This document shows positions 26,039-47,877 of a stretch of 64,000 nt of DNA, one piece after another (position 1 is the stretch's first letter; each line of letters opens with the position of its first letter). A model generated the notes under the pieces. The model saw only the letters and a program-made list of their open reading frames with translations, was not told where the DNA came from and ran no database searches. The position numbers were made by a program, and so were the translations under genes. This stretch comes from a phage. The DNA lies in the NCBI GenBank assembly GCA_017864995.1, contig GCA_017864995.1_4097.1; one strand, written 5' to 3'.

Positions 26039-26065
26039 GGGTTGACTTCGGTCAACCCTTTTTTT
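26039..26065 (+). terminator. rho-independent terminator (PeSL-type hairpin without -10 box)
   Basis: gggttgac-TTCG-gtcaaccc followed by TTTTTTT; same hairpin as the terminator-promoter cassettes downstream. Confidence 0.7.
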
Positions 26066-26599
26066 ATGGGACAAATTTATTAATGGTGATACAATGATCT
26101 ATGTACAATCACAATGACAGTACTGGTACTGACAATCTTCCCCTACTTCACTTGAAAATGTAAAGGATAGATGAGCTTTTCATTGTAGCGAACAGCAAAA
26201 GAAACCCGTTAGATGTGGGCATAGTTTGAACCCCTCACGGCAATGCGGCTGTATAAAGAACCACGTTAGGATAGCTGGTGGTTCCTCGATAGACATATAA
26301 GGATAACACCTTACGAATTATCTAAGGGAGAGTTATCGAATTTTGTACAGGAAAGTTGCGTCCAAAATTTGAGTACTCACATTAAGTATTTGATTGCATA
26401 GATACTTAATGAAGATACACTATGTTTAAAAGTGTAGACCGTCATATGAAACTGAAGTAGAGAGAAACAGGATGACCCGCTTTCGCACTCGTTATGAGTA
26501 ATCTTCAATGCAATAGCTCTGATACCATCAGCGTCAAATTTCCCTCCGTGCGGGGGGAAGAAAAATCCCTTCCTCAAATCCCGTCAATATTAAAAGTCC
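26066..26599 (+). other. ORF-free island, candidate structured RNA
   Basis: About 530 bp with no plausible ORF on either strand in an otherwise gene-dense region; more GC-rich by eye, many local inverted repeats. Confidence 0.3.
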
Positions 26600-26628
26600 T
26601 TGACAGTTATGATTCATTCGCGTAGAAT
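26600..26628 (+). promoter_or_regulatory. sigma70-type promoter (TTGACA-17-TAGAAT)
   Basis: TTGACA at 26600 and TAGAAT at 26623. Confidence 0.5.
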
Positions 26629-26692
26629 ACGTAGTATTAGAAGCGAACAGACATCTCGAAGAGATGGATGATTAACCATCGAGGAATATCTA

Positions 26693-26902
26693 ATGAATTC
26701 AGTAATCTTTTTAATTATTGCTCTTTCACCACAATCTGGCGTACAAATCACCCCAATGAATTCAATGAATCAATGCATTGCAGTACGTGACAGTACGTAT
26801 GAACAAGTAAACAGCGTTTCACTTAGAACAGTTGGTGAAGAATTAATGTGGTGTTACAATAGTAATACTAAAGAAAAACTAATTGTTGGACAAACAGAAT
26901 GA
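26693..26902 (+). CDS. small secreted/membrane protein
   Basis: 69 aa ORF with N-terminal hydrophobic segment; SD GAGGAA upstream. Confidence 0.5.
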   Translation: MNSVIFLIIALSPQSGVQITPMNSMNQCIAVRDSTYEQVNSVSLRTVGEELMWCYNSNTKEKLIVGQTE

Positions 26903-27129
26903 GTTATGGTGTTCGTTTTGAGATTCGTTCTATTGTTATCAATGACGAGAAACAAGCATCGTTGGATGGCGATATACGAGAACTATATCTATCATGTATC
27001 CGTGCAAAATCTGAAGCAGATGTCTTAGTACAAATGTATAGTTTTAACTTTTCAAATGGATTCTATTTGGTACGAGTTATTGAAGTGAAAAAAGTACTTA
27101 TTGGTTGTAGCATAGAAGGATTAATGTAA
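26899..27129 (+). CDS. hypothetical protein
   Basis: 76 aa ORF; ATGA overlap. Confidence 0.5.
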   Translation: MSYGVRFEIRSIVINDEKQASLDGDIRELYLSCIRAKSEADVLVQMYSFNFSNGFYLVRVIEVKKVLIGCSIEGLM

Positions 27130-27130
27130 A

Positions 27131-27925
27131 ATGAGCACTATAGATGAATTGATTCGCCGGAATTCAAAATACTACGACCCATCAGAAATTGTCGGCAACA
27201 TTACTAAATCTGAGTTCGGCCCAAATACTCGAAAACTCATTCATGTAATGTCACGTGATGGCTTTAAATGTGATTGTTGTGGTGAATCCAATGTGGTATT
27301 CACTTTACATAAGCACAGTACTAAAGACCGTTATAAATTCAGACCTTATGTACTTAAAGGGAAACGCCTTGTACGCATGACGTTAGACCATAATGTACTG
27401 GACTGTCTTCAGGGCGGTAATGATAAAGAGAACATGACCGCATTGTGTGAGGATTGTAACGCATTACGCCAGCATAAGTTTGCTGAGTACAGTGAGTTTA
27501 AGCACTGGTATCATAACGCTGATCGTTCTATCGAGCCTGACGTTAACTACTGCTTCATTGAGTATATTAAGAATGCTAAAGATACGTACATTCTTAAATC
27601 AATGTCACCTATTACAGTGTTCCCTGAGAATCTATTCAGTACTATGCAGCGTGATTTTAAACGTGGTATCATTAATGCATTCAAACATTTAGACAAAGGT
27701 ATCAAGCACTTTGAGGTGCAATGCTTAAATGAAGGAATGAATCGTTTAGTACAAATTTACATGAAATCATTTATAGGTGTTGACACCGCACGTCTACCAG
27801 TATATAATTACTTTATTGAAAGCGAAGAAGGTGAATCACTTCGTGATTATGGTGAAAGATTTAATAATAAAGTTTTCACTGCAATCGCAAACGAGATTCA
27901 TTACTATAAACCATATGTAATTTAA
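27131..27925 (+). CDS. HNH endonuclease-like protein (possible homing endonuclease)
   Basis: CDCCGES ... LDHNVLDCLQGGNDKENMTALCEDCNALRQH fits the HNH beta-beta-alpha metal finger. Confidence 0.65.
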   Translation: MSTIDELIRRNSKYYDPSEIVGNITKSEFGPNTRKLIHVMSRDGFKCDCCGESNVVFTLHKHSTKDRYKFRPYVLKGKRLVRMTLDHNVLDCLQGGNDKENMTALCEDCNALRQHKFAEYSEFKHWYHNADRSIEPDVNYCFIEYIKNAKDTYILKSMSPITVFPENLFSTMQRDFKRGIINAFKHLDKGIKHFEVQCLNEGMNRLVQIYMKSFIGVDTARLPVYNYFIESEEGESLRDYGERFNNKVFTAIANEIHYYKPYVI

Positions 27926-27939
27926 TTAGAGGATATATC

Positions 27940-28122
27940 ATGCAAAACATCATTCTTATCGTAGGTATCATTCTTGGTGTATATGGTCACTCCTGGATGA
28001 ACGAGAAGTTCCCTAATACCCGTCCTGAGTATTGCAGTACTAATGTATTCCAGAATGGTGAGAAACCAAAGGATAGTATTGGTAAGAAACTGGACAAAGT
28101 ACTTGACGTAATCAACGAATAA
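27940..28122 (+). CDS. small membrane protein
   Basis: 60 aa ORF with N-terminal TM segment. Confidence 0.5.
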   Translation: MQNIILIVGIILGVYGHSWMNEKFPNTRPEYCSTNVFQNGEKPKDSIGKKLDKVLDVINE

Positions 28123-28131
28123 GGGTAAAGT

Positions 28132-28332
28132 ATGTTTAAATCAAATACAAATGTTGGTAAGAAGGTTCAATTACTTGAGGATGTATCCACCTTGAGTGGA
28201 ATTTTCCCAAGAGGTCACATCATGACTATTATTGCCGAAACATCCCGTGGGTGGGATTTGGAAGATGCTGATGGTAATCGCATCCTTGAGGCTGGATTCT
28301 ATGGTCATCGTGAATATAAAATCATTGATTAA
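28132..28332 (+). CDS. hypothetical protein
   Basis: 66 aa ORF. Confidence 0.55.
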   Translation: MFKSNTNVGKKVQLLEDVSTLSGIFPRGHIMTIIAETSRGWDLEDADGNRILEAGFYGHREYKIID

Positions 28333-28341
28333 GGATGCAAC

Positions 28342-28425
28342 ATGACTTTAGAGATTGTCTTTGGTATTGTTAGCTTAGTCGTCTGTGTGGGTTGGTTTGG
28401 GTATCTGATGATTTTTGGTGATTAA
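28342..28425 (+). CDS. hypothetical 27-aa hydrophobic peptide
   Basis: Not in track; MTLEIVFGIVSLVVCVGWFGYLMIFGD; SD AAGGA upstream; weak. Confidence 0.25.
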   Translation: MTLEIVFGIVSLVVCVGWFGYLMIFGD

Positions 28426-28428
28426 TAC

Positions 28429-28456
28429 TTGACATAAGATATCAGTACTGTATAAT
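28429..28456 (+). promoter_or_regulatory. early promoter (TTGACA-16-TATAAT)
   Basis: ttgacataagatatcagtactgtataatgtttatatcaa. Confidence 0.6.
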
Positions 28457-28501
28457 GTTTATATCAAACGACACCCACTTTAACAAATAATAGGAAATAT
28501 T

Positions 28502-28780
28502 ATGTCTTTTACCAAAGAAGAACGTGACCTTATTAAAAAAGCAATCTGGTTTTATGCTAATGAAGGGGAGTGCGATGAAGAAAAAGCACGTGAACTGTGT
28601 AATATCCTTGAGCAGAAACAAGAACTGAAAGTTTATCGTATCCGTGTTTTGGATGACGGGGATCGTATTGTCCTAGCTGAAACAAAAGAAGAAGCAGAAC
28701 AAATCTTCACTGATAAAAACGAAAATCCACATTGGATGGAAGAAGTCTGTGAAGTAAAAAAAGGTACTTATATCGATTGA
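28502..28780 (+). CDS. hypothetical protein
   Basis: 92 aa ORF; stop TGA inside TTGACT of downstream promoter. Confidence 0.6.
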   Translation: MSFTKEERDLIKKAIWFYANEGECDEEKARELCNILEQKQELKVYRIRVLDDGDRIVLAETKEEAEQIFTDKNENPHWMEEVCEVKKGTYID

Positions 28781-28805
28781 CTGTACTGAATAATAGCAGT
28801 ATAAT
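28777..28805 (+). promoter_or_regulatory. early promoter (TTGACT-17-TATAAT)
   Basis: ttgactgtactgaataatagcagtataatgtttatatcaa. Confidence 0.6.
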
Positions 28806-28898
28806 GTTTATATCAAAGGGAATGCAGTGAAAGGAAAGACAGCATAATCGTACTCGTCACTGCGTTTCCACCCTTTTAAATTAAATGAGGAATTAACT

Positions 28899-29207
28899 AT
28901 GTTTCAAACTAACACTCAAGGTTTTGTAATCATCGATTTGAATCAAAACAGCGGTTATTGGATGAAACCTACTGACGCATGTATGCAGTTTGATTTTTTA
29001 GGTTACAGGATTAGTGTAAGTACTGGTGCTTCTGTACTGCGTGGTGGTTGTATCGTTGAACATCTGGTAACTGATCCAGAAGGTCGTGAGTATGAAATCG
29101 CAGGTTCAGTACAAGATGCCATTATGTTTGTATGTCAGCGTGAAATGAATAGTTCGAATTCAAATGCACTGACTCATGCTCTTTCTCAAGAAGTGGAGGT
29201 TCGTTAA
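28899..29207 (+). CDS. hypothetical protein
   Basis: 102 aa ORF; SD GAGGAA upstream. Confidence 0.6.
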   Translation: MFQTNTQGFVIIDLNQNSGYWMKPTDACMQFDFLGYRISVSTGASVLRGGCIVEHLVTDPEGREYEIAGSVQDAIMFVCQREMNSSNSNALTHALSQEVEVR

Positions 29208-29458
29208 TGAAATATATCGTAGCAGTACTCGTTGCATTTTTACTCACTGCATGTGACGCTTCAACAAAAGAACGCACAAGTGATTTTATTCTCCCTATTG
29301 AATTACAAGAAGCAGGATGTAAGATTTATCGTATGCAAAAGGACGGTGCTGGTGTAACCTTGTATACAGTTTATTGCCCTAATGCAAATACCAGTACTGG
29401 ATACAGCAGCGGTAAAACACGAATCAATACTTCAGTGATTAATGGAGTACAACAATGA
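29207..29458 (+). CDS. putative lipoprotein
   Basis: N-terminus MKYIVAVLVAFLLTAC with lipobox-like LTAC. Confidence 0.6.
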   Translation: MKYIVAVLVAFLLTACDASTKERTSDFILPIELQEAGCKIYRMQKDGAGVTLYTVYCPNANTSTGYSSGKTRINTSVINGVQQ

Positions 29459-29823
29459 GCCTTGATACAACCCGTGCAACAGATTTATTAACTCGTATGA
29501 ATAATGAAGAATTTCTTGCTGAAATAAAGTACAAGCTTGAAAAACTGGCACGAAGTGCTGAAGTAATTGAAGTTGAAGGTCACTTACCAATGGACCAATT
29601 CCATACGTTCAACGAAGATATGGTTTATTATCCAAATGAAATTTGGATTGAGTGGGAGTCATGGACTAACAAAACTCTACGCATTGAAGGTTATTGTGTG
29701 AATTATGAATCTGAACCTGGTGATGTTACAAAAACTCTCTCCATTTGGTGTACAAAAACACATGAACTCGTTGAGGTGAATTTGAATTATATGAAAGGTT
29801 TCCGTTGGGGTGATGTTCAATGA
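29455..29823 (+). CDS. hypothetical protein
   Basis: 122 aa ORF; ATGA overlap. Confidence 0.6.
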   Translation: MSLDTTRATDLLTRMNNEEFLAEIKYKLEKLARSAEVIEVEGHLPMDQFHTFNEDMVYYPNEIWIEWESWTNKTLRIEGYCVNYESEPGDVTKTLSIWCTKTHELVEVNLNYMKGFRWGDVQ

Positions 29824-30095
29824 TTAAAAAACTATTGACAGTTGTCTTTGTATTCTGTACAATGTTTCTTACAGCATGTAATGATGACGGCAGGTTTAGT
29901 GCAAAAGACTTAGTTCGTCAGGATTGTACATTCACAGGTAAGTCTTTTATTAACGAGTATGAGGTATGTACACAATCAGGCCGTATCTGTGGTGGTTGGG
30001 AAAAACGTCAGGAGAGATTGTATGTATATGAATGCCCTGGACATCTCAACAAAGTACTAAGCACACACAAACTTGTTTATGATAAGGTTGAATAA
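29820..30095 (+). CDS. putative lipoprotein (Cys-rich)
   Basis: N-terminus MIKKLLTVVFVFCTMFLTACNDD with lipobox-like LTAC. Confidence 0.6.
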   Translation: MIKKLLTVVFVFCTMFLTACNDDGRFSAKDLVRQDCTFTGKSFINEYEVCTQSGRICGGWEKRQERLYVYECPGHLNKVLSTHKLVYDKVE

Positions 30096-30310
30096 TGACT
30101 ACCAATGAAATGATGCAGGTTATTTGGGATAAAGGTTGTGATATTAAAATCACTAGTACTGATGTTCGTGTATTCAAAACTGAATATATGGAGTACTTGG
30201 ACCTTGATACTTATAATAATATTGTATCAATTGAACACAAAGGTGCAGTACTGGAAACAATTGACGTAGTACTGAAGAAAGCTACCGACCTATTAGGAGC
30301 GGCAGTGTGA
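30095..30310 (+). CDS. hypothetical protein
   Basis: 71 aa ORF; TAATG overlap. Confidence 0.55.
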   Translation: MTTNEMMQVIWDKGCDIKITSTDVRVFKTEYMEYLDLDTYNNIVSIEHKGAVLETIDVVLKKATDLLGAAV

Positions 30311-30453
30311 ATAACAAAGAGTGGGAAGAGTACCGTAAGAAGTGCAGGGAGTTTGATAAAGAACTAACTGGTACAGTGAATGCAGTAATGTGGGTATCTG
30401 TAATTATTGCAGTTCTTGCGTTGGGTGCTATTATTATTAATAAATTATTCTAA
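30307..30453 (+). CDS. hypothetical small C-tail-anchored membrane protein (48 aa)
   Basis: Not in track; GTG start overlapping upstream stop, AGGAG SD; C-terminal hydrophobic segment; weak. Confidence 0.35.
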   Translation: MNNKEWEEYRKKCREFDKELTGTVNAVMWVSVIIAVLALGAIIINKLF

Positions 30454-30463
30454 GGCGAATATC

Positions 30464-31397: not shown

Positions 31398-31400
31398 CAA

Positions 31401-31619: not shown

Positions 31620-31620
31620 G

Positions 31621-31824: not shown

Positions 31825-31860
31825 TAACTACATCAAAAAACAACTGCAACTGAGGATACT

Positions 31861-34330: not shown

Positions 34331-34522
34331 ATGTTGATTTATCAATGTGATAACATTCGTGTTATGCAGCATCCCTACTTACAAATCTTTGATGTGCAGC
34401 AGTATATGGAAGGTGATGATCCAAGAACCTATGGTCGTAAGTATGATTACTTCACTGTAAAGCAGTGTCATAACATCAAAGAAGTACGACAATTAGTTCA
34501 AGAACTTCAAAATAAAGGTTGA
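34331..34522 (+). CDS. hypothetical small protein
   Basis: Track ORF 34301 trimmed to ATG 34331 (SD GAGGA). Confidence 0.45.
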   Translation: MLIYQCDNIRVMQHPYLQIFDVQQYMEGDDPRTYGRKYDYFTVKQCHNIKEVRQLVQELQNKG

Positions 34523-34548
34523 CTTCGGTCAACCTTTTTTGTTATAAT
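34517..34548 (+). promoter_or_regulatory. terminator-promoter cassette (PeSL-like)
   Basis: Hairpin ggttgac-TTCG-gtcaacc with T-run; TTGACT inside the stem as -35, TATAAT 18 nt downstream. Confidence 0.7.
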
Positions 34549-34577
34549 TATTTCATCAACTACTGGGGATTTTAATT

Positions 34578-35018
34578 ATGTACGTATATCGTTTTGAACT
34601 TAAATTCAGTTATATTGAACCTAACTTAGATCCAGCAAAAACAGTAGGGCCGTTCGCACGGTACTCTTCACGATACAGTACGAAAAATGGATTTGACCGT
34701 TTGTGCATGACCACGCCTTCGCAATTCCAACCAGAACCAACTGAAGATGGAATCTATTCAATCAAACGTGGCTGGGCATTTGGCTGTCAGAGTTTGAATG
34801 ATTTGTTTAAGTTCTTTACTATGGACTTGGGTAAATTACATCGTGCAGGGTTTGCTGTATCAGTATATGAAGTTCCTGATAATCATGTTGACATTGGTCG
34901 TAGTCAGGTTCAGTACTATTGTGGTAGTGCCAATCTGGTTCGTATCATGTCAGTGAGAGAAGCAAAGGATGAGTACCGCCAAAGTAAAAGAGTAATACAT
35001 GAGGCTGTATATGGATAA
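34578..35018 (+). CDS. hypothetical protein
   Basis: 146 aa ORF downstream of cassette. Confidence 0.65.
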   Translation: MYVYRFELKFSYIEPNLDPAKTVGPFARYSSRYSTKNGFDRLCMTTPSQFQPEPTEDGIYSIKRGWAFGCQSLNDLFKFFTMDLGKLHRAGFAVSVYEVPDNHVDIGRSQVQYYCGSANLVRIMSVREAKDEYRQSKRVIHEAVYG

Positions 35019-38102: not shown

Positions 38103-38108
38103 TTAAAA

Positions 38109-38142
38109 GGGGTTGACTTCAGTCAGCCCTTTGTCGTATAAT
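38109..38142 (+). promoter_or_regulatory. terminator-promoter cassette (PeSL-like)
   Basis: gggttgac-ttca-gtcagccc hairpin; TTGACT at 38113, TATAAT at 38137 (18-nt spacer). Confidence 0.65.
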
Positions 38143-38189
38143 ATTTTCATCAAGTGATACAAAATACAAACAACGTGAGGTATTAAATT

Positions 38190-38303
38190 ATGCAAGGTAC
38201 TAAATTCATCATCGCTGCCCTAATCGCTGCTGTTGTAGTGGGTACAGTATGTTATTCAATTGACACCTATATCAATACACCTAGTGTTGAACAAACCAAA
38301 TAA
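38190..38303 (+). CDS. hypothetical small membrane protein (37 aa)
   Basis: Not in track; MQGTKFIIAALIAAVVVGTVCY; SD GAGG upstream; weak. Confidence 0.35.
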   Translation: MQGTKFIIAALIAAVVVGTVCYSIDTYINTPSVEQTK

Positions 38304-38311
38304 GGGATATC

Positions 38312-38575
38312 ATGGCTGAAACATTATCACTATATGCGTTAGTACTGTTATTTGTCGGATTTCTTCCTGCACTCATTACAGCCATTCGTGTTGTTAAACA
38401 TGAAGCTGCATTGATTGTATGTAGTATTGGGTCGAACATTCTATTGTATTTCTTTTTGACAAATACTATTGTACTGTTTGCTTTCTTTATCATGATTCTG
38501 TGGGTACTTGTAATTCTCGGATTCTTCATTTGGTCATTGGTTGATCCTAAGAAAAAAACAGGAGAAGTGAAATGA
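38312..38575 (+). CDS. polytopic membrane protein
   Basis: 87 aa ORF with 3 hydrophobic segments. Confidence 0.55.
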   Translation: MAETLSLYALVLLFVGFLPALITAIRVVKHEAALIVCSIGSNILLYFFLTNTIVLFAFFIMILWVLVILGFFIWSLVDPKKKTGEVK

Positions 38576-38868
38576 AATTAATTATAGCAATGATGATGTG
38601 TTTGGCTTTCCCTGTACTGGCTACTCCTAATCTGGACTGCACACTGTTGCGTTCAGATGGTGACACACTTGAAATCAACACATATGAACTCTTTGGTCCA
38701 AGTGTAGTGGAGAATGAAACCACCTACAATTTCAAAGCTATTGACTTTGAAGGTAATGTTCCAGTACTAACTACAATGACTATTGACAAAACTACTTTAC
38801 TCGGACGAATCACCACACAACGTGGAGAAAGTAAAACATTCACAGCGAAAGCTGACTGTAACTACTAA
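38572..38868 (+). CDS. small secreted protein (Cys-containing family)
   Basis: 98 aa ORF; N-terminal signal-peptide-like MKLIIAMMMCLAFPVLATP. Confidence 0.6.
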   Translation: MKLIIAMMMCLAFPVLATPNLDCTLLRSDGDTLEINTYELFGPSVVENETTYNFKAIDFEGNVPVLTTMTIDKTTLLGRITTQRGESKTFTAKADCNY

Positions 38869-38890
38869 TGGTATAGTACAGTGAAAATAG

Positions 38891-38921
38891 GGTTGACTTC
38901 GGTCAACCTTTTCTTTATACT
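38891..38921 (+). promoter_or_regulatory. terminator-promoter cassette (PeSL-like)
   Basis: ggttgac-TTCG-gtcaacc hairpin with T-run; TTGACT at 38893, TATACT 17 nt downstream. Confidence 0.65.
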
Positions 38922-38949
38922 ATAAATATAGTCATAGAGAATAAACAAT

Positions 38950-40461
38950 ATGAAATCTATGGAGAGAAATCAAATGCCAGGTCAATTTACTGATAAAAAT
39001 GGCGGGAACATGGCAGGTCACTCTGATAAATGGAGTGAACGCAATCGTCGTCAAAATAGCTACCAAGCAGGACAGGGGTCACGTGGTTCACGTAATCAAG
39101 GGACAGGTTTAGCTGGTAAGGCAAACGCAGAAGCAGGTGAAGTTAAGAGTACTGAGAACATGACTGAGCTAGAAAAGCTACGTTATGTTAACTCATTAGG
39201 TCTTCTTAACGCAACACAGAAACAACGCCTTGCTGATATGGAACGTGCTGAGAAAGAACAAGCAGTTCCTAAAGAAGAACCAAAACCAGAAGCTCCTAAA
39301 GCAGCTAACCCTGTTAAAGAGTTATCTGATAACTTAGGTAAGATCTTTGCTAACAAACCACAGTTGATTCAGGGTATTGTCAAAGCACTACAGGCAGTTC
39401 CTAAAGAAGAACTCAAAGGTAAAGCACAAGCTGTACTTGATGCAATGAAAGGTAATAAGAGCACTGAACCCACTGAAGTATTCAGTACTATCATGCGTGC
39501 ACTTGAAGGTACACACAAAGAAGATTCCAAAGAACCTGAACAGGGTGAAGCAAGTCTTGATGGTATTCTTAAAACTTTTGATAGTATTGGTAAAGCAGAC
39601 CGTGCTAATGCCCAGCAAGTCAAGAATGTACTGGCTAAACTTGAAAACCGTTTAGAAGGTAAAGACGATAAGGTTAAGCTCGTATCAGATGCAGTTAACA
39701 GTGCACTTAAATCTTATGTACAAGGTGAGAAAAGTCGCTTCGTAACAGCTATGGATGCTGCATTCAACACTATGAAAAAGTATGAAGCAGAACATGGTGA
39801 GAAGGTAACACCAGATGGTTATCTACTACGTAAAGATGAAGAAGGTGCAGTTGAACAGAAAGATGTTGAGCCTGAGCAAGAAGATCTACCTGATACCGTT
39901 GATATGGATGGATACATTCATCGTCCTGAGATGGAAGAGTTTGGGTCAGATAAAGAAGGTTTTGAACATGCAATGGCAGTATATAAAGCATTAGTTAAAA
40001 ATCCAGATTATGCTAACCGTTTTGTTGACGAGTTTGATAGTGCATGGAATAACTACAAAGAGAAAGGTTATGACTTCCCTGCTGAAGCTGCATTCTTTGA
40101 ACTTGGTAAACTATTAGCTAAACATGGAATTGACGTTGGTTCATCTGATTCTGACGGTATGGAAGAAGAACATCTTGAAATGACTGATAAATCAATTCAT
40201 GAACTTCAAAAGTTAATGATGTGGATATCCGAGATTGGTAAAAAAGCAGGTGCTGATAGTAAAAGTATCAACAAAAATATTAGTTGGATTAAAGATAATG
40301 TTGGTAACAATGCTCGTAAACTTCAAAAGGCTTGGGCTGATTTAGTAAATGGTGCAGATGATGTTGACATTGAATCACCAGAAGCATATGAGTATGCACT
40401 AACTACACTTGATAACTCATTCAAAGAGTACGACCGTGGTGTTGGAAAGGATAAAAAATAA
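38950..40461 (+). CDS. hypothetical charged protein (503 aa)
   Basis: Long K/E/A-rich ORF flanked by cassettes; contains LRYVNSLGLL motif shared with 37719. Confidence 0.75.
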   Translation: MKSMERNQMPGQFTDKNGGNMAGHSDKWSERNRRQNSYQAGQGSRGSRNQGTGLAGKANAEAGEVKSTENMTELEKLRYVNSLGLLNATQKQRLADMERAEKEQAVPKEEPKPEAPKAANPVKELSDNLGKIFANKPQLIQGIVKALQAVPKEELKGKAQAVLDAMKGNKSTEPTEVFSTIMRALEGTHKEDSKEPEQGEASLDGILKTFDSIGKADRANAQQVKNVLAKLENRLEGKDDKVKLVSDAVNSALKSYVQGEKSRFVTAMDAAFNTMKKYEAEHGEKVTPDGYLLRKDEEGAVEQKDVEPEQEDLPDTVDMDGYIHRPEMEEFGSDKEGFEHAMAVYKALVKNPDYANRFVDEFDSAWNNYKEKGYDFPAEAAFFELGKLLAKHGIDVGSSDSDGMEEEHLEMTDKSIHELQKLMMWISEIGKKAGADSKSINKNISWIKDNVGNNARKLQKAWADLVNGADDVDIESPEAYEYALTTLDNSFKEYDRGVGKDKK

Positions 40462-40470
40462 ACATTTAAA

Positions 40471-40503
40471 AGGTTGACTTCGGTCAACCTTTTTTTGTAA
40501 ATA
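40471..40503 (+). promoter_or_regulatory. terminator-promoter cassette (PeSL-like, weak -10)
   Basis: aggttgac-TTCG-gtcaacct hairpin with TTTTTTT; -10-like TAAATA. Confidence 0.55.
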
Positions 40504-40532
40504 TTGTAGAGGGTTTTATAAGAGGTAATGCA

Positions 40533-40784
40533 ATGTTTAAATATGTTTTATTTTCACTTGTATTGTTTACTGATATAGTTTATAGTACTGAATACCAGTG
40601 CTCCATTGCTAGACAGGAGTTTAGAAACGGTGAGTTCTATACCAAGTCTTACACTAGAGGATTGGTACATGACAATAATAAAACTATAGGGTTCAATGCA
40701 TTTGATAACAAAGATCGATATACGTCTGGAATACTATCTGAACGTAAGTCGGATATACTAGGTATCGAGCGTGAATTCCGGTGA
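40533..40784 (+). CDS. small secreted protein (Cys-containing family)
   Basis: 83 aa ORF; signal-peptide-like N-terminus. Confidence 0.55.
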   Translation: MFKYVLFSLVLFTDIVYSTEYQCSIARQEFRNGEFYTKSYTRGLVHDNNKTIGFNAFDNKDRYTSGILSERKSDILGIEREFR

Positions 40785-40794
40785 CACGGTTGCA

Positions 40795-41145
40795 ATGTGT
40801 AATGATATTGAGAGTACTAAGAAAGTATATACTAATGGTGAAAATACTTTTAGATTCCACAATCTTACTACCAATGAAAGTTTATACTTCTACAACTGTA
40901 AAGAGTTCATTAAACCTGTGGATAACTCATGTGATATGCCGGAGCCAAAAACTGCTGTATGTGAGGAACCACAATCTAAAGCTGACAAAGATTCAAAAGA
41001 TAAGAAAGACAAAGCTGACAAATCGGATAAAAAAGAAAACAAAAAGAAAGCTAAAGATGATAAAGATAAAAAGTCCCCTAAGCCAAATCCATTTGAAAAG
41101 CCAAAGAATGAAAAGCCAAAACCAGACATGACATGTAAAATATAA
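40795..41145 (+). CDS. hypothetical protein with K/D-rich low-complexity tail
   Basis: Track ORF 40771 trimmed to ATG 40795; C-terminal KADKDSKDKKDKADKSDKKENKKKAKDDKDKK. Confidence 0.5.
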   Translation: MCNDIESTKKVYTNGENTFRFHNLTTNESLYFYNCKEFIKPVDNSCDMPEPKTAVCEEPQSKADKDSKDKKDKADKSDKKENKKKAKDDKDKKSPKPNPFEKPKNEKPKPDMTCKI

Positions 41146-41152
41146 AAGAAAA

Positions 41153-41185
41153 GGGTTGACTTCGGTCGGCCCTTTTTGCTATAAT
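41153..41185 (+). promoter_or_regulatory. terminator-promoter cassette (PeSL-like)
   Basis: gggttgac-TTCG-gtcggccc, TTTTT, TATAAT at 41180, conserved leader catttcatcaactactggagg. Confidence 0.7.
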
Positions 41186-41211
41186 CATTTCATCAACTAC
41201 TGGAGGCAAAC

Positions 41212-41625
41212 ATGTTAAAAGTTATTTTCCGTTCTATCAGTTCATTACTTCTTATGATTAGTTCAGTTTGTTATGCAAATGAAGTATCTGATTTATTTGA
41301 GAAGAATTACCCAACTGCACAAGAGATGGGTGTTTTAAAATGCAAGCTAACTTCGTACAACATCATCGGCAGTAAACTTGTACTGGAACATGAACGTAGT
41401 ACACCAATCCCTCTAGTAGAAGAAGGTAGTACCTTTAGCTTCAAGTACGGGGTGAATGTAACATCTGGTGTAATGAACAATGTTGATGCAGAGACTGGTT
41501 CAACATGGAGTACTAGCGGTAAAGATGTGTTTCATCGTATGCGTGAAAATGGTAAACTGAAGTACGTATATGAAAGTTCATTCATGAAACGTGTATTCAT
41601 TATAAAAAATTGTGTACCAGCATAA
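41212..41625 (+). CDS. secreted hypothetical protein
   Basis: 137 aa ORF; signal-peptide-like N-terminus ending CYANEV. Confidence 0.6.
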   Translation: MLKVIFRSISSLLLMISSVCYANEVSDLFEKNYPTAQEMGVLKCKLTSYNIIGSKLVLEHERSTPIPLVEEGSTFSFKYGVNVTSGVMNNVDAETGSTWSTSGKDVFHRMRENGKLKYVYESSFMKRVFIIKNCVPA

Positions 41626-41912: not shown

Positions 41913-41923
41913 GGGTAAAAAAA

Positions 41924-42262: not shown

Positions 42263-42271
42263 GGATTGATA

Positions 42272-42613: not shown

Positions 42614-42614
42614 G

Positions 42615-42959: not shown

Positions 42960-42968
42960 GGGATTGCT

Positions 42969-43226: not shown

Positions 43227-43606
43227 TGCGTCAAATGCACAAAGTAACCGAGCTAAACAAGCGTCTGATTAAACAATCAATGTTTGAGGATAAAGAGTCT
43301 TACTATAACTTCAAACGTGCTGTAGAGGCTGCTATCCACATTCAGAAGCTTAAAGATAGTGGATGTATTATTCTCGAAAATGGTTCTGACGTTGTTACTG
43401 ATGACTTCAGTGTAGCGTTTGATGTTTCACCTGATGGTTCGCTATCAATGCCACGCTTAGGGACTGGTGACATGACTGTGTGGGTAGGTTTCACTATGGG
43501 GAATGTACCAGGCACGGTGTATGTAGATGATGCTGAGTTGAAAGAAAGCTTCAAAAACTTATCGCATCTTGAACCACAATACGCACATGAAATGAATTTA
43601 TTTTGA
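43226..43606 (+). CDS. hypothetical protein
   Basis: 126 aa ORF; TAATG overlap. Confidence 0.6.
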   Translation: MRQMHKVTELNKRLIKQSMFEDKESYYNFKRAVEAAIHIQKLKDSGCIILENGSDVVTDDFSVAFDVSPDGSLSMPRLGTGDMTVWVGFTMGNVPGTVYVDDAELKESFKNLSHLEPQYAHEMNLF

Positions 43607-43607
43607 G

Positions 43608-43635
43608 TTGACAAACTCATTCAGTACTGTATAAT
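43608..43635 (+). promoter_or_regulatory. early promoter (TTGACA-16-TATAAT)
   Basis: ttgacaaactcattcagtactgtataatgtttatcaa; same family as 28429 and 10748. Confidence 0.6.
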
Positions 43636-43682
43636 GTTTATCAAGGGGATGAACTTCTCATCCCCACAATCGAGGAATTGTC

Positions 43683-44237
43683 ATGATTACTTTTAAGAAA
43701 ACTGCTAACCACATCCATGAGATCTACATTAACGGTCACAAAGCTGGCCTTCTTCGTTTACTCGCCCATCATCCGAATATTACCGTATCTGATAATGAAC
43801 CTAAAGATTGGCGTGTATTTTTCTTTGGAAAGTACAGTGATTTTCAAGTATCAAACCTGAAGAACATTCGTTCAGTATGCACGTTAACTGAAATTAAAGA
43901 AAAGTTAACCAAAGCATTGAAAACTAATCCAGATAGTGTTCTTCCACCTGATAACTTTGTAGAGAAAGGATATGCCTTAGCTCATTTCAAAGATGGTACT
44001 ATTCAATCTATCAGTACTGAATATGAATATCAATGGACTGAGTACTTCACTTATGGATCGCGTAATACATTGATGGCTTCACGTAGTAAATTGGAAGAAG
44101 TACTGACTCGTATGAATGAACGCGAGCGTCAATTTTATGACAAACCAGAAATGTGGAGTTCAACTTACATTGACCGTATTGACTATGTTATTATGACTCC
44201 AATCTTTGACACTGCTTACTATGATTCTTTGAAATAA
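43683..44237 (+). CDS. hypothetical protein
   Basis: 184 aa ORF; SD GAGGAA upstream. Confidence 0.65.
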   Translation: MITFKKTANHIHEIYINGHKAGLLRLLAHHPNITVSDNEPKDWRVFFFGKYSDFQVSNLKNIRSVCTLTEIKEKLTKALKTNPDSVLPPDNFVEKGYALAHFKDGTIQSISTEYEYQWTEYFTYGSRNTLMASRSKLEEVLTRMNERERQFYDKPEMWSSTYIDRIDYVIMTPIFDTAYYDSLK

Positions 44238-44248
44238 GGATAACTTAT

Positions 44249-44425
44249 ATGAAACTACGTACTCGTAATCGACTGATGGATGCACTGTACCATGAACAGC
44301 TTTCACTGAATGAAGTGAAGCGTCAGTTAATGTACACATATCTGTTACCCGCTCGCATTGCAAAACAACGTGCTAAAGAATTGCTGAAAGAAGCAATCGA
44401 GTACTGGGAATCTGATTCGTACTAA
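44249..44425 (+). CDS. hypothetical small protein (58 aa)
   Basis: Not in track; SD AAGGA upstream; hand-translated. Confidence 0.45.
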   Translation: MKLRTRNRLMDALYHEQLSLNEVKRQLMYTYLLPARIAKQRAKELLKEAIEYWESDSY

Positions 44426-44453
44426 TTGTCACGTTAATTAAGTGAGGCGATAA

Positions 44454-44705
44454 ATGAAAATTTTATTAGTTCTAATACTACTAATTGTTTTACCATTTAC
44501 GTTAGTATCCCCTGAACTTGCATGGAATGTGTTTGTGTACTTACTATGTACTATTGTAGTAAATGGTATCTTGATCTTAGTTCTATTCATAAATGGAATA
44601 GGACACGGTGGAGGATGGACCAGTACTGCTGATATTGTACATAAAACCACTATGTTTTTATTTGTAGTGTGGAATTTATTCTGGACTTGGTTTGTGTTCT
44701 TCTAA
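44454..44705 (+). CDS. small polytopic membrane protein
   Basis: 83 aa, 3 hydrophobic segments. Confidence 0.5.
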   Translation: MKILLVLILLIVLPFTLVSPELAWNVFVYLLCTIVVNGILILVLFINGIGHGGGWTSTADIVHKTTMFLFVVWNLFWTWFVFF

Positions 44706-44714
44706 TTAAAAAAT

Positions 44715-45086
44715 ATGAATATAGATTTGAAAGGTGCAACACGAACTGTCATACTCATTGGGGAATATGCTATCAAGATTCCAACCTTTAAAAGTTGGAA
44801 GCTATTCTTAACAGGGATGATAGCTAACCTCAATGAACGTTCGTGGATGCAGTACTCCAAGCGTAGTGATACTGGTATCTGTCCTACTTTGTGGTCATCA
44901 TGTACTGGACTAGTAACTGTACAGAAACGTTGTAAGCCAGTACAACATAGGGGTTTATTTTGGGTGGAGTTGTGTGCTTTAGCATTGAATTCAGAGTTAA
45001 GTACTGACTTCTTTTATTCAGATGCGAAGCCAGAAAACTTTGGGTATCTGTGTGGTAAGTTGGTTAAACTTGATTATGGAGATTAA
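44715..45086 (+). CDS. hypothetical protein
   Basis: 123 aa ORF. Confidence 0.6.
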   Translation: MNIDLKGATRTVILIGEYAIKIPTFKSWKLFLTGMIANLNERSWMQYSKRSDTGICPTLWSSCTGLVTVQKRCKPVQHRGLFWVELCALALNSELSTDFFYSDAKPENFGYLCGKLVKLDYGD

Positions 45087-45087
45087 T

Positions 45088-45357
45088 ATGTACGCACTGT
45101 ATAATAAAGAAAAGAAACGATTTGCTAAGGTTGAAATTTCGATTGATACATTTGACATGTTGGAGTACTGTATTGTAACGGACCTATATGCTAACTTGTA
45201 TTACGTTCTTGATGACGTATCAGTACTGCAACGATTGCTTGAGAATTCCAAAAGTCAATGCCAGGGCATCCATGATGGTTCATCTTATGAAACACCTGAG
45301 TGTTCCTACGGCTATCTGGACGGGTATGAGATTGTGAAGTTGGGGATTGTTGAATAA
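45088..45357 (+). CDS. hypothetical protein
   Basis: Track ORF 45022 trimmed to ATG 45088 (SD GGAG) after upstream stop. Confidence 0.5.
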   Translation: MYALYNKEKKRFAKVEISIDTFDMLEYCIVTDLYANLYYVLDDVSVLQRLLENSKSQCQGIHDGSSYETPECSYGYLDGYEIVKLGIVE

Positions 45358-45369
45358 ATGGATTAAACA

Positions 45370-45783
45370 ATGAAGAAGTGTATCACGTGTAATATTGAAA
45401 AAGACATTAGTGAATTTGGTATAAGAAGTGATACTGGGAAACATAGAAATACATGCAAAGGTTGTAGTAATATTACCAGTAAGAGAACCAGAAATAAAAA
45501 AACTGATGTAAAAACACTTGAAGAAATCAAAAGAAAAAATAAAGATTTCATGACCAGAGTTAAATCATTTTATGGTTGTAGTGTTTGTATGATGAAGTAT
45601 CCAGAATGTTTAGACTTTCACCATCTTGACCCTAATACCAAAGAACATACACCAAGTTCTATGTTCAGTAAAAGTCGAGATGCTATCAAAGATGAAATTC
45701 GAAAGTGTATGATTCTTTGTTCTAATCACCATCGCATGGTACATTCTGGTAGACTATGTTTGATTGAAAGAAAAAAGGGTTGA
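45370..45783 (+). CDS. HNH endonuclease (freestanding, homing-endonuclease-like)
   Basis: CITC...CKGC...LDFHHLDPNTKEH...CMILCSNHHRMVH fits HNH with zinc-binding cysteines; stop codon TGA lies inside the TTGACT of the downstream cassette. Confidence 0.65.
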   Translation: MKKCITCNIEKDISEFGIRSDTGKHRNTCKGCSNITSKRTRNKKTDVKTLEEIKRKNKDFMTRVKSFYGCSVCMMKYPECLDFHHLDPNTKEHTPSSMFSKSRDAIKDEIRKCMILCSNHHRMVHSGRLCLIERKKG

Positions 45784-45809
45784 CTTCGGTCAGCCCTTTT
45801 TGCTATAAT
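45777..45809 (+). promoter_or_regulatory. terminator-promoter cassette (PeSL-like)
   Basis: gggttgac-TTCG-gtcagccc, TTTTT, TATAAT at 45804, leader catttcatcgaaacgagagg. Confidence 0.7.
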
Positions 45810-45837
45810 CATTTCATCGAAACGAGAGGATGAATAC

Positions 45838-46281
45838 ATGACACGCATTAACTTAGTACACGTTAAAGAACTTGCTGACCAACATCTGATGGCTGAATAT
45901 CGTGAACTCCCACGTGTGTTTGGTGCTGTACAAAAACATGTTCAAGCACGTAAGCGAGTCCGTGATTTCAAAATTAACAGTACTTACCTGTTAGGTTCAG
46001 GTCATGTAACATTCTTCTACAACAAGTTATTGTACTTACAGAAGCGTCATATTGATATTGTTAACGAATGTTTGCGTCGTGGGATGAAGATTCAAAACAC
46101 TGAAGTAAACGACATTAGCGGATTCCCTACTGAGTTTTGTAATGACTACGTACCATCGGAGTCAGAGATTAAAATGTCTCGTGAGCGTTTGATTGAGAAG
46201 CTACAGATGAAGCCTACGTGGTATAAGTTTACTGATGTTGAGTTACCTGAGTATTATCGTTCTATGATAGTGTATTACTAA
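45838..46281 (+). CDS. denV: pyrimidine dimer DNA glycosylase / endonuclease V
   Basis: N-terminus [35 protein letters not shown]...VRDFKI...GHVTFFY...PTWYK matches my memory of T4 endonuclease V nearly residue for residue over the first ~60 aa. Confidence 0.85.
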
Positions 46282-46321
46282 AAATACACCATAAATGAAG
46301 AAATTATTTAATACAAATGTG

Positions 46322-46350
46322 TTGACCAGTGGTTGACATTTATGTTAACA
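46322..46350 (+). promoter_or_regulatory. possible promoter (TTGACC-17-TAACAT)
   Basis: gttgaccagtggttgacatttatgttaacat upstream of 46382; weak. Confidence 0.3.
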
Positions 46351-46381
46351 TATCAGTACTGAAAACTAAAGAGATTGAGTA

Positions 46382-47836
46382 ATGTTTGAAGAATTTTACA
46401 TGAACTTAAAAAATGAAAAAGTATTCATACATAGTGAATGTGGGATGTCATTTCAATTCATTGATAATAGTATTCTTCCAGATTACTATAAGAATGTGAT
46501 CAATAAATTGAGAACCATAAATTCAAACATTACGATTTTTGGATTCTGTGTAAGCTCATTAGATGAGCTATCATCTAAATCAAAAATTCTTTTCATGTAT
46601 AAGAATGTTTTATATTTAAATATGGATCAACATACCTTAAAAAATAAAATTTCCAAAACAACAGATTTGAAATTTGTAGTTCCATATAATAATGATAACT
46701 ATTTTTATTACATTACCCAAAAAGTGAAAAAATTTGGGGCATGTATTTTTGAAAATGAAAAAATAAGTGATGGTGCAAATACTATAATTAAATACAAATG
46801 TCACGACGGTCATATAACCAACAAAACTATAAAGGCGATTCACAATAATCCAGATAAATGTATGATGTGTGCTGGCATAGCCCCACTAACCCAAGAAAAT
46901 GCATCATCTATCGTTGCGGAGAAATGTAAAGAAAAAAATCTTGAATTTACTCCATTTACATATATCAATATTTCTACCAAAATAAATCTATATTGTAAGA
47001 TTCATGATTATTCTTGGGTATCAGTGTATAATAACATCAGGAATGATGGGTTTGGGTGTAAGTATTGTGCAAGTGCAAAAAATTCAATGCTACGCAAACC
47101 AAAAAACCCACAACAAGAAATTGAAAAAATATGTGTTGAGAATGGGTATAAATTAGTGGAGCCTTTTGTATATACCAATCAAACCACAGTCATTCATTTA
47201 ATGTGTGATAAACATCCAATACCCCACACATGGAAGACTGCTTATTCATCTTTGGTATATTCAAAGACTAAGTGTAACTTATGTCAAACACATAAATCAT
47301 CTAGGGCGAATATCATTAATAAAGAAGAACGTAAAGCTCAAGTTCAAGCAAAAAGTTTAAAAAATGACTGGGTATTGAAAGATTTTGAATTTGGGGGAAG
47401 TGTTTGTAGAAATATACATCTTGAATGTCATAAGCATAGTCGAGTACATAAGTGGACAACAACCTATCATCATTACATTGTTCGTGATCAAGGTTGTGCA
47501 GCCTGTAATAATGGTCATACACAGCAATATGCTTATATTAATACTATTTTAGACAATGATTTACCTGTGGCTTTAAAATATGGTATTGAAAAACAAAAAG
47601 GAACAAGAGTTAAGACACAAAATAGAAAATCATTATTTAAAGTACAGTCATTGTATGTTTATGTATTCCAAAGCGTAGAACAGTGCAAGAACGCTGAAAA
47701 AGAATGTAAGAAGATTTTTGGAAAAGGTATTTTATCTAAACGCGAAATGTGTGATGGATATACTGAAACAACCACAATATTAAATTTGGGTAAAATCATT
47801 GAAATCTATGAAAAATGGGGTGGCGTAAAACAATAA
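46382..47836 (+). CDS. Cys/His-rich repeat protein (four C-x-H ... G-C-x2-C modules; putative zinc-binding DNA-binding or nuclease-like)
   Basis: Repeats YKCHDGH...CMMCAG, LYCKIHDY...GCKYCAS, LMCDKHP...CNLCQ, LECHKHS...GCAACNN spaced about 55 aa apart. Confidence 0.7.
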   Translation: MFEEFYMNLKNEKVFIHSECGMSFQFIDNSILPDYYKNVINKLRTINSNITIFGFCVSSLDELSSKSKILFMYKNVLYLNMDQHTLKNKISKTTDLKFVVPYNNDNYFYYITQKVKKFGACIFENEKISDGANTIIKYKCHDGHITNKTIKAIHNNPDKCMMCAGIAPLTQENASSIVAEKCKEKNLEFTPFTYINISTKINLYCKIHDYSWVSVYNNIRNDGFGCKYCASAKNSMLRKPKNPQQEIEKICVENGYKLVEPFVYTNQTTVIHLMCDKHPIPHTWKTAYSSLVYSKTKCNLCQTHKSSRANIINKEERKAQVQAKSLKNDWVLKDFEFGGSVCRNIHLECHKHSRVHKWTTTYHHYIVRDQGCAACNNGHTQQYAYINTILDNDLPVALKYGIEKQKGTRVKTQNRKSLFKVQSLYVYVFQSVEQCKNAEKECKKIFGKGILSKREMCDGYTETTTILNLGKIIEIYEKWGGVKQ

Positions 47837-47844
47837 TAAGAAAA

Positions 47845-47877
47845 GGGTTGACTTCGGTCGGCCCTTTTTGCTATAAT
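47845..47877 (+). promoter_or_regulatory. terminator-promoter cassette (PeSL-like)
   Basis: gggttgac-TTCG-gtcggccc, TTTTT, TATAAT at 47872, leader tatttcatcaactgatgagg; near-identical to 41153 and 45777. Confidence 0.7.

Follow-up and report, generated by a model that had tools for sequence, protein, structure and literature searches.

Background

The promoter early stem-loops (PeSLs) were defined by Arbiol et al. 2010 in the T4-like phages phi1 and RB49 as elements that combine an upstream stop codon and an AT-rich tract, a near-consensus sigma-70 promoter, a G/C-clamped stem-loop, a Shine-Dalgarno sequence and a start codon, the stem-loop taking one of five possible positions, one of which overlaps the -35 hexamer (PMC2839356). 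These elements are concentrated in plastic regions of the genome, are linked to insertions and deletions (indels) and are able to form mini-circles; reporter assays gave evidence for promoter and terminator activity, and at that time there was no evidence of PeSLs outside the T4-like phages (PMC2839356). Comeau et al. 2014 extended them to PST/T4 and nt-1/KVP40, with a consensus in nt-1 of A3-4 G3-loop-C3 T3-4, a -35 of TTGYVH, N17 and a -10 of TAWWAT, and with degraded or 'half' PeSLs that keep the -35 and the stem-loop without a -10 (PMC4122927). Here we analyse eight copies of a composite element, which we call the cassette, in a 64,000-nucleotide (nt) stretch of phage DNA (contig GCA_017864995.1_4097.1, hereafter the window). 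We consider it quite probable, from sequence comparison, that the cassettes are PeSL-type composite regulatory elements in the early region of a 121Q-like jumbo coliphage that uses the sigma-70 RNA polymerase of its host early in infection. A first-pass annotation, made from the letters of the window, had described them as terminator-plus-promoter cassettes with the -35 inside a UUCG hairpin and had likened them to PeSLs, and every sequence-level test that we ran agreed with that description.

The window comes from a 121Q/PBECO4-like jumbo coliphage of the genus Asteriusvirus (348-386 kb genomes) and covers an early-gene region, its closest records being fEgEco12 (98.9% identity, with indels) and 121Q (~88%). 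The T4-type setting assumed in the first-pass annotation was thus mistaken, the nearest records all being Asteriusvirus jumbo phages. Across 1-52 kb the + strand is the coding strand of the genes, which include a sigma-70-like factor, denV, two HNH genes and many small hypothetical genes, and in the same stretch TTGACN-N16-18-TAnnnT is matched 44 times on the + strand versus 3 times on the - strand. This stretch is presumably a dense early-type region read by the host sigma-70 polymerase, an early timing that we infer because TTGAC/TATAAT promoters have been reported for related jumbo phages (PMC5259590; PMC7318152).

Results and discussion

Eight copies of one cassette

A search with TTGACTTCGGTCAA allowing up to two mismatches gave exactly eight matches in the window, all on the + strand, starting at 26042, 34519, 38113, 38893, 40474, 41156, 45780 and 47848, where 0.54 would be expected from shuffled sequence and none of 100 shuffles reached eight. 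The sites are those of the first-pass annotation, which counted them from the preceding G run instead of from TTGAC, and a wider 18-mer search with up to four substitutions over 23-52 kb revealed no extra copy. Each cassette occupies an intergenic gap of 55-90 nt between two + strand genes and is laid out as an A-tract (5' of GGG in all eight copies), GG(G), TTGAC, TTCG (TTCA once), GTCAA, GTCAG or GTCGG, CC(C) and a run of 3-7 T that is present in each copy, so that the consensus reads AAAAGGG-TTGAC-TTCG-GTCAG-CCC-TTTTT-GC-TATAAT. The upstream genes' stop codons lie 0-25 nt before the cassettes, and two of them sit within TTGAC itself: that of the HNH gene, as had been pointed out before, and likewise that of the open reading frame (ORF) ending at 34522. 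Coordinates and the anatomy of the single copies are given in Table 1.

The hairpin and the terminator side

Folded as RNA, all eight copies form a hairpin of 9-13 base pairs (bp) with a UUCG loop (UUCA at 38113), with folding energies between -14.1 and -19.8 kcal/mol; relative to dinucleotide shuffles, the z-scores range from -4.6 to -5.9. When both strands of 25-45 kb were read for terminator-like sites, five of the top six were cassette hairpins, and we regard the cassettes as the putative terminators of this region. In the record of phage G17 these hairpins are marked as ARNold terminators, and a Yersinia jumbo-phage record has -35/-10 signals beside the hairpin at one cassette, its -35 not being coincident with TTGACT. 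A search of 24-50 kb against Rfam at gathering thresholds matched no family.

The length of the T-run differs between copies with and without a -10. Seven T occur in 6 of 37 copies that lack a -10 versus 1 of 98 copies that have one, and within the window the longest T-runs (seven) are those of the copies at 26042 and 40474, which have no -10. The TTGACT hexamer with the rest of the hairpin and the C clamp takes up 11-12 nt, leaving 5-6 T before TGnTATAAT. A U-tract limited in this way by the presence of a promoter would make the promoter-bearing copies probably leaky, partial terminators, and the T7 copies terminator-only.

The promoter side

A -10 hexamer is found 17-18 nt past TTGACT in six of the eight copies, being TATAAT at 34519, 38113, 41156, 45780 and 47848 and TATACT at 38893, and it is extended by TG in four of these six. 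The reading of TTGACT as a -35 with TATAAT 17-18 nt downstream in most copies, put forward in the first-pass annotation, therefore holds, as does the absence of a -10 that it noted for the copy at 26042; the copy at 40474, not singled out there, lacks one too, and its orthologues are likewise without a -10 in every examined relative that retains that cassette. The conserved leader that had been attributed to most copies is common to five, beginning TTTCATC and followed by GGAGG or GAGG and the ATG. The distance from the -10 to the ATG is 27-30 nt in five of the six promoter copies and 48 nt at 38113, and the predicted new transcripts open with AUCAACU or AUCGAAAC, after which comes GGAGG. Stem-loops with z <= -3.5 occur at the six cassette promoters and at no other of the window's 35 strong + strand promoters, so that by this measure the cassette promoters are a distinct class within the window. 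Stem-loops as a general feature of the other strong promoters were considered and rejected, as the only candidates, at 5508 (z -2.5), 11480 (z -2.25) and 1054 (z -3.3), are weak.

Taken as one element, the cassette could work as follows. The RNA read from the upstream gene, A-tract-GGG-UUGAC-UUCG-GUCAG-CCC-U(3-7), would fold into a GC-clamped tetraloop hairpin followed by a U-tract and would act as an intrinsic terminator or attenuator that closes the upstream transcription unit. In the duplex DNA, the 5' arm with the first base of the loop would be the -35 hexamer TTGACT, the rest of the hairpin and the U-tract would fill the 17-18 nt spacer, and TGnTATAAT would serve as an extended -10. Transcription starting ~7 nt past the -10 would then yield a new mRNA without the hairpin and with a leader of ~20 nt that contains GGAGG. 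As dispersed direct repeats of ~50 nt in the same orientation, the cassettes would in addition be substrates for homologous recombination, which would delete, insert or swap the intervening gene modules, every module retaining its own promoter and terminator.

Selective constraints on the two halves

For 67 copies in distinct contexts, taken from annotated phage records, each position was tallied with no pairing presupposed. The TTGAC arm is near-invariant among them, the loop is the most variable part, yet is mainly UUCG or another tetraloop such as UACG, and the 3' arm varies only by transitions that preserve the pairing as G.U, with pair 3-16 being U.G in 52 of the 67 copies. The stem pairs in the + strand RNA of 62 of the 67 copies versus 11 of the 67 in the - strand RNA. 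The U.G pairs and this strand-limited pairing therefore point to a hairpin in RNA that is transcribed the same way as the genes, and the additional constraint on the DNA sequence of one arm only is what a -35 would impose. The lengths of the G-run and of the C-run covary (r 0.66), and with a longer G-run T is the next base (30 of 31 cases), again giving G.U.

As a control, the 18-mer core GGTTGACTTCGGTCRRCC was compared between viral contigs and bacterial genomes, a -10 being accepted if it matched at least five of six positions at 16-19 nt. Such a -10 accompanies 46 of the 63 unique viral core copies (73%) versus none of the 77 unique bacterial ones, and an upstream A-tract accompanies 50 of the 63 versus 4 of the 77. 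The bacterial genomes contain at least 120 core matches, each of them single-copy, roughly 70 being expected by chance in 596 Gb; some fall in Poribacteria 16S rRNA. The cassette is thus no bacterial repeat, these matches being chance-level single copies of which none has a -10. Because the bacterial cores come without the -10, the composite is not a by-product of the hairpin sequence. This control, the rank of the cassettes as terminators and as a promoter class, the pattern of conservation and the geometry of the spacer together indicate selection on both halves of the cassette.

Table 1. Cassettes and associated features of the window, with hairpins, promoter elements and the terminator-only class as predicted from the sequence
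Feature	Position	Strand	Hairpin, or content and family match	Promoter, leader and neighbourhood
Cassette 1, terminator-only ('half PeSL')	26033..26068	+	AAAGGG-TTGAC-TTCG-GTCAA-CCC, then T7; 11-pair stem, -17.6 kcal/mol, z -4.6	Directly 3' of the sigma-factor gene; no -10 at 17-18 nt
Cassette 2	34509..34577	+	Hairpin 34514-34537, T6; upstream ORF stops at the TGA of TTGAC (34520-34522)	-35 TTGACT at 34519; extended -10 TGTTATAAT ending 34548; leader with GGGG Shine-Dalgarno; ATG at 34578
Cassette 3	38103..38189	+	Hairpin with UUCA loop and U.G pair; short T-run TTTGTCG	-35 at 38113; TATAAT ending 38142; small ORF from 38190
Cassette 4	38883..38949	+	Hairpin, TTTTCTTT tail	-35 at 38893; -10 TATACT ending 38921; ATG at 38950 of virion structural protein gene
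Cassette 5, terminator-only	40464..40532	+	AAAAGG-TTGAC-TTCG-GTCAA-CC, then T7	No recognisable -10; downstream gene begins 40533
Cassette 6	41146..41211	+	Hairpin with two U.G pairs (GTCGG arm), T5, z -5.5	Extended -10 TGCTATAAT ending 41185; leader CATTTCATCAACTACTGGAGG; ATG at 41212
Cassette 7	45770..45837	+	Hairpin (GTCAG arm), T5, z -5.9; upstream HNH ORF stops at the TGA of TTGAC (45781-45783)	TGCTATAAT ending 45809; leader CATTTCATCGAAACGAGAGG; denV ATG at 45838
Cassette 8	47838..47905	+	Hairpin (GTCGG arm), T5	TGCTATAAT ending 47877; leader TATTTCATCAACTGATGAGG; ATG at 47906 of AAA-ATPase-like gene
Phage sigma-70-like factor gene	25066-26031	+	Matches Sigma70_r2 and Sigma70_r3	
Window cargo at locus 1	38190..38868	+	Three ORFs without family match: small ORF from 38190, 38312-38575, 38572-38868	Between cassettes 3 and 4
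HNH endonuclease gene	45370..45783	+	phrog_2255, E 4.6e-32	Between gene-216 homologue and cassette 7
denV	45838-46281	+		
Window-specific replacement	46242..47837	+	Altered denV 3' end and 484-aa (amino acid) ORF	From denV to cassette 8
484-aa ORF	46382-47836	+	Residues 242-483 match endonuclease family phrog_681, E 1.1e-52	

Comparison with PeSLs and other described systems

The cassettes carry all the sequence-level features of PeSLs, including those of the degraded class, which is represented by the two copies without a -10. They are a repeated intergenic motif with a sigma-70-like promoter; they hold a stable G/C-clamped stem-loop at a set position of the promoter, as in the -35-overlapping subclass; they have an A/T-rich tract, a stop codon in or near the element, a Shine-Dalgarno sequence and a start codon; and at three loci close relatives differ by indels or replacements with single chimeric elements, as is also seen in phi1 and RB49. 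The feature of the definition that they lack is a T4-like myovirus as host genome, the cassettes being in an Asteriusvirus jumbo phage (about 350-385 kb), a mismatch that is a matter of taxonomic range and not of mechanism. They also resemble the phi1/RB49 elements in the occurrence of degraded copies in both and in preceding small ORFs of unknown function within early regions that are plastic, although a preference of the cassettes for the most plastic DNA is not apparent, neighbouring cassette-free stretches of the window being as variable or more so. The differences are that one subclass with one near-fixed hairpin (TTGAC-UUCG-GTCAG) is found here, whereas the stem positions vary in phi1/RB49, that a genome has ~8 cassettes clustered in ~22 kb versus about 50 PeSLs, and that promoter, terminator and mini-circle activity have been shown by experiment in phi1/RB49, whereas here they are putative.

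The cassette consensus fits the nt-1-type PeSL consensus, and a 61-nt version of it used as a BLAST query hits nt-1 directly at L007:20001-20061 (77% over 60 nt), an intergenic site reading AAGAAAAGGGTTGACAGTAGTCAGCCCTTTTTTGTATCAT...ATCAACT...GGAG. A second nt-1 site, at L007:14759, has a UUCG loop and a leader resembling the WPEC3 variant; the two sites are candidates for being among the published nt-1 PeSLs (PMC4122927). Unlike the cassettes, the nt-1 hairpins have more varied stem sequences, and the -35 is not part of the hairpin in many of them. A more distant likeness is that to the morons and Botstein-type linkers of lambdoid phages, in which modules have their own promoter and terminator and conserved linkers have been proposed as exchange points (PMC2839356). 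The regulatory sequences of morons, however, are neither repeated nor conserved and are not thought to mediate exchange (PMC2839356), whereas here the regulatory cassette is itself the repeated homology.

Our literature search found no published description of a composite cassette in Asteriusvirus-type phages. The papers on CBB, PA5oct and G17 give promoters and terminators separately and do not mention composites, and a search with the literal cassette sequence returned one paper, which was unrelated. The comparison supports regarding the cassettes as a -35-overlapping PeSL subclass in a jumbo-phage lineage where it has so far been undescribed.

Spread beyond Asteriusvirus: convergence or descent

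The composite recurs near base for base in other phages, always flanked by two genes, and a -10-like hexamer (matching TATAAT at 4-6 of 6 positions) stands at 17-18 nt. It is present upstream of denV in Klebsiella phage K64-1, at a site orthologous to that of cassette 7, and also in Xanthomonas XbC2, Yersinia fHe-Yen9-03, Serratia BF, Aeromonas 65.2, Vibrio D481 and VH7D, Pectobacterium PcCB7V (Vequintavirinae) and the Gram-positive Brochothrix A9. IMG/VR has 65 occurrences of the core, spread over 47 stretches and mainly forming multi-copy sets in contigs of 345-378 kb. Of the eight exact-core copies in phage 121Q, seven are located within or beside a ~22 kb region syntenic with the window, among small hypothetical genes.

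That such near-identity across families reflects one optimal design (with a -35 consensus joined to a C(UUCG)G tetraloop and with GC clamp, U-tract and extended -10) reached by convergence, instead of descent or transfer, is in our estimation an evenly balanced possibility. Nearly all positions of the ~40-nt core are functionally determined, and in Brochothrix A9, a Gram-positive Herelleviridae phage, this core is joined to a distinct leader of its own, as convergence would have it. In phages of Gram-negative hosts, by contrast, the similarity reaches on to the start of the transcribed sequence: in one set register, that of the predicted +1, ATCGAAAC occurs in 20 of 162 copies against ~0.3 expected, in several phage groups, and ATCAACT in 15 of 162 against ~1.1 expected. 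The same U.G choice (GTCAG) also returns in all groups. The similarity around the +1 hints at common descent or exchange. This motif, ATCGAAAC or ATCAACT, was seen in Asteriusvirus (for example at 45816-45823 of the window), in other jumbo contigs, in contigs of Vequintavirinae size and in nt-1.

A more far-reaching proposal, which we regard as unlikely, is that the cassette is an 'adaptor' common to large virulent phages from various families (Asteriusvirus, the RaK2/K64-1 group, GAP32 and other jumbo phages, KVP40/nt-1-like and Aeromonas Straboviridae, and Vequintavirinae) that would let modules equipped with it recombine between unrelated phages infecting the same cell. We raise it because the composite is near-identical in these families and because the fixed-register similarity at the +1 is shared among phages of Gram-negative hosts. 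Such an adaptor could be likened to an integron without an integrase, and the cassette may be maintained partly for the exchange of modules.

In other jumbo phages (L015, which is Xanthomonas XbC2; L020; L030, which is 121Q, elsewhere in its genome; L034; L039; L040; and L048) several cassettes are followed by a conserved CTAACCCAYAGGGTG motif in place of an ORF, ~30-40 nt past the -10, which may be a small non-coding RNA made from the cassette promoter. No copy of this motif was found in the window.

Recombination within cassettes

We compared the window with ten Asteriusvirus relatives (fEgEco12, WPEC3, CMSTMSU, Ecwhy_1, 121Q, G17, UB, JP4, ph0011 and phAPEC6), in which most cassettes are kept at orthologous sites. 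Blocks of homology end or resume at cassette edges: a synteny block common to six relatives stops at 38153 (cassette 3), homology with five relatives picks up again at 38884 (cassette 4), that with 121Q, G17, CMSTMSU and Ecwhy_1 picks up at 45763-45772 (cassette 7) and that with six relatives restarts exactly at 47838 (cassette 8). In all, 5 of 34 distinct breakpoints lie in cassette footprints, which make up 2.4% of the region, against 0.84 expected (P 0.0014).

A comparison of insertion points with relatives, which the first-pass annotation had suggested, places recombination junctions within cassettes at three loci. At each of them some genomes have one cassette and others have two cassettes with cargo between them, and the single cassette is always chimeric, its flanks being 88-100% identical to the cassette of the correct side and 44-74% to that of the wrong side. 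Locus 1 lies between structural-protein genes (121Q genes 199 and 201). There, 121Q, G17, JP4 and phAPEC6 hold a 38-aa gene between two cassettes, UB holds a different gene of 774 nt, and ph0011 has no cargo and a single chimeric cassette. On its left flank this cassette agrees at 88-90% with the left cassette of 121Q and JP4 and on its right flank at 91-93% with their right one, versus 56-63% in the wrong-way comparisons. Locus 2 is upstream of denV, with a single cassette in the window and in JP4 and, in ph0011, two that enclose four genes, including an N6-adenine methyltransferase; the correct-side identities are 94% and 89% and the wrong-way ones 58-74%. At locus 3, from denV to the AAA-ATPase-like gene, fEgEco12 and ph0011 have one cassette, and 121Q, G17, Ecwhy_1, UB and JP4 have a half-cassette, in which homology ends within the 3' arm, and past it one or two more cassettes that split different gene modules. 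The left flank of the fEgEco12 cassette is 100% identical to the half-cassette and its right flank 91-97% identical to the distal cassette, and the stretch in common is AAGGGTTGACTTCGGT.

This comparison shows recombination within the cassettes of the relatives, with genes apparently added or lost by it. In the window, the intervals 38113-38893 (780 bp) and 40474-41156 (682 bp) are candidates for the formation of mini-circles.

The window-specific insertions beside cassettes

The HNH gene next to cassette 7 is absent from 121Q, G17, Ecwhy_1 and CMSTMSU, the insertion measuring 405 nt with a 9-nt overlap at the junction. The replacement that precedes cassette 8 begins inside denV, whose homology with the relatives stops at 46241-46257, and the adjacent replacement therefore gives the window an alternative C-terminus of denV (147 aa, versus 171 aa in fEgEco12 and 121Q). 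The first ~240 residues of the 484-aa ORF matched no family in Pfam, PHROG or NCBIfam apart from one sub-threshold Pfam hit to CapR, and the DNA for these residues had no match in the phage collection; the ORF resembles a domain-swapped free-standing endonuclease. Transposition of whole modules was looked for, and neither the 1.6-kb insert of the window nor the methyltransferase module of ph0011 was found at other genomic positions, the former being unique except for an endonuclease 3' end that it shares, and the latter matching only a GAP32 methyltransferase (70%). A homing endonuclease that targets the cassette was set aside because it would cut all eight copies of its own genome.

Weighing the interpretation

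Several observations speak against the interpretation of the cassettes as PeSL-type elements that act in transcription and in recombination. Our search of the literature for maps of Asteriusvirus transcript 5' or 3' ends or for transcriptomes found none. Some U-tracts are short or interrupted (TTTGTCG at 38113, TTTTCTTT at 38893) and termination may be weak there, and the 18-nt spacer and TTGACT in place of TTGACA are slightly off consensus. Some breakpoints, above all for ph0011, are approximate, having been drawn from BLAST blocks that were chained greedily. Those flanks of the window that have no cassettes vary at least as much as the cassette region, coverage among relatives being 44-87% over 1-25 kb and 17-47% over 50-64 kb versus 55-92% over 25-50 kb, where the cassettes are. 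The indel at 28469-28798, which shows an 18-nt overlap, is flanked by two copies of another promoter repeat, one that has no hairpin, and any dispersed repeat therefore appears to serve. Finally, both of the window-specific insertions just described are endonuclease genes and may have moved by homing. Seen in this light the cassettes seem, from the comparison of genomes, to be one recombination substrate among several and not special drivers, and homing and ordinary recombination between dispersed repeats contribute too. The term hyperplastic, which the first-pass annotation had applied to the region, is fitting; the cassettes are not the sole cause of this plasticity, given that cassette-free DNA is at least as plastic.

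Carried further, these points would make the cassettes regulators of transcription with no causal part in gene turnover, the breakpoints coinciding with them as conserved islands at gene boundaries and the insertions arising by homing-endonuclease mobility or illegitimate recombination. The nature of the two insertions and the equal or greater variability of the flanks agree with this, and so do the slot from denV to gene 223, which carries different endonuclease genes in several relatives, and the left-hand breakpoints, which are often within genes (for example 46241 in denV, and 40904). We nevertheless give such a passive role only a minor chance of being correct. Each of the three single cassettes matches different cassettes to its left and to its right, with the switch inside ~16 nt of common hairpin sequence, the cargo at two of the three chimeric loci is other than endonuclease genes (ORFans and the methyltransferase module), and the enrichment persists under a null of gene junctions only, 6 of 8 cassette-bearing junctions having a breakpoint versus 10 of 58 other gene junctions (P 0.0018).

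The transcriptional part of the PeSL-type interpretation meets weaker rivals. If the cassettes were plain intrinsic terminators, TTGAC in the stem would be incidental and the TATAAT boxes would use other -35s or be no promoters; two of the eight copies (26042 and 40474) do keep the TTGAC hairpin without a -10, and the annotators of G17 marked terminators alone. This is in our view very improbable, considering the -10 at 17-18 nt in the other six window copies and the viral-bacterial contrast (46/63 versus 0/77), the TG of the extended -10 in four window copies, and a 5' arm that never drifts though C in place of T where it faces the frequent G would make the stem stronger, the variation falling entirely on the 3' arm, which indicates a sequence-specific constraint on TTGAC. 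The least probable of the alternatives is a promoter with an operator, in which the inverted repeat would be the site of a dimeric phage or host regulator over the -35 and not an RNA terminator: a palindrome overlapping the -35 is at a typical operator position, and Arbiol 2010 speculated on a DNA-binding protein recognising the GGGG...CCCC stem (PMC2839356), but the DNA repeat is imperfect in most copies (T opposite G in 52 of 67) in a way tolerated by RNA on one strand only, the loop favours the RNA-stabilising UUCG and UACG tetraloops, and the elements stand immediately 3' of stop codons with an A-tract before and a U-tract always after.

Other repeats and features of the window

The palindromic octamer CAGTACTG has 37 copies in the window against 1.0 expected, in coding and non-coding DNA alike, a strong excess that is unusual for a palindrome. 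The octamer provides the spacer of a second family of promoter repeats (for example at 10762, 11183, 11494, 12253, 28443 and 43622) and the core of - strand terminator hairpins (for example at 63223). This second promoter family, TTGACTAAATAGTTCAGTACTGTATAATGTTT, has no strong hairpin and is found on the + strand at 10748, 11169, 11480, 12239, 28429, 28777, 32740 and 43608, several of the copies being within the tRNA cluster at 10055-14127. Between two of its members lies the 331-bp segment 28469-28798 (ORF 28502-28780, phrog_24324), which is absent from fEgEco12, WPEC3, CMSTMSU, Ecwhy_1 and ph0011.

A third family of repeats, (A)GCCAGTACT-loop-AGTACTGGC(T) with a T-run, terminates - strand genes, with members at 51190, 53078, 54357, 56967, 58253, 59475, 60738, 61966 and 63221; the - strand genes there carry, in relatives, the annotation of RCC1-like or 'DNA condensation' paralogues. 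The GC skew flips near 52 kb, and no other part of the window varies as much among relatives as the region of these terminators.

The stretch 26070-26690, which is ~620 nt long and follows the sigma-factor gene and cassette 1, has no + strand ORF of at least 60 aa and no match in Rfam. It contains an extended -10 candidate (26068-26095), a copy of CAGTACTG at 26118 and a promoter at 26600, and ph0011 diverges from the window at 26330-26553.

Implications

The cassette offers a simple annotation rule for the boundaries of transcription units in poorly annotated genomes of 350 kb. Its fixed sequence would amount to a compact and portable insulator, with a terminator and a strong promoter in ~45 nt, that may serve phage engineering. 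The recurrence of the composite across families poses convergence against horizontal spread of a regulatory element as a question that can be tested. PeSLs have been proposed as the physical 'linkers' of modular evolution in T4-like phages and have been documented only there, and the cassettes of Asteriusvirus would extend this mechanism to a second lineage of large phages.

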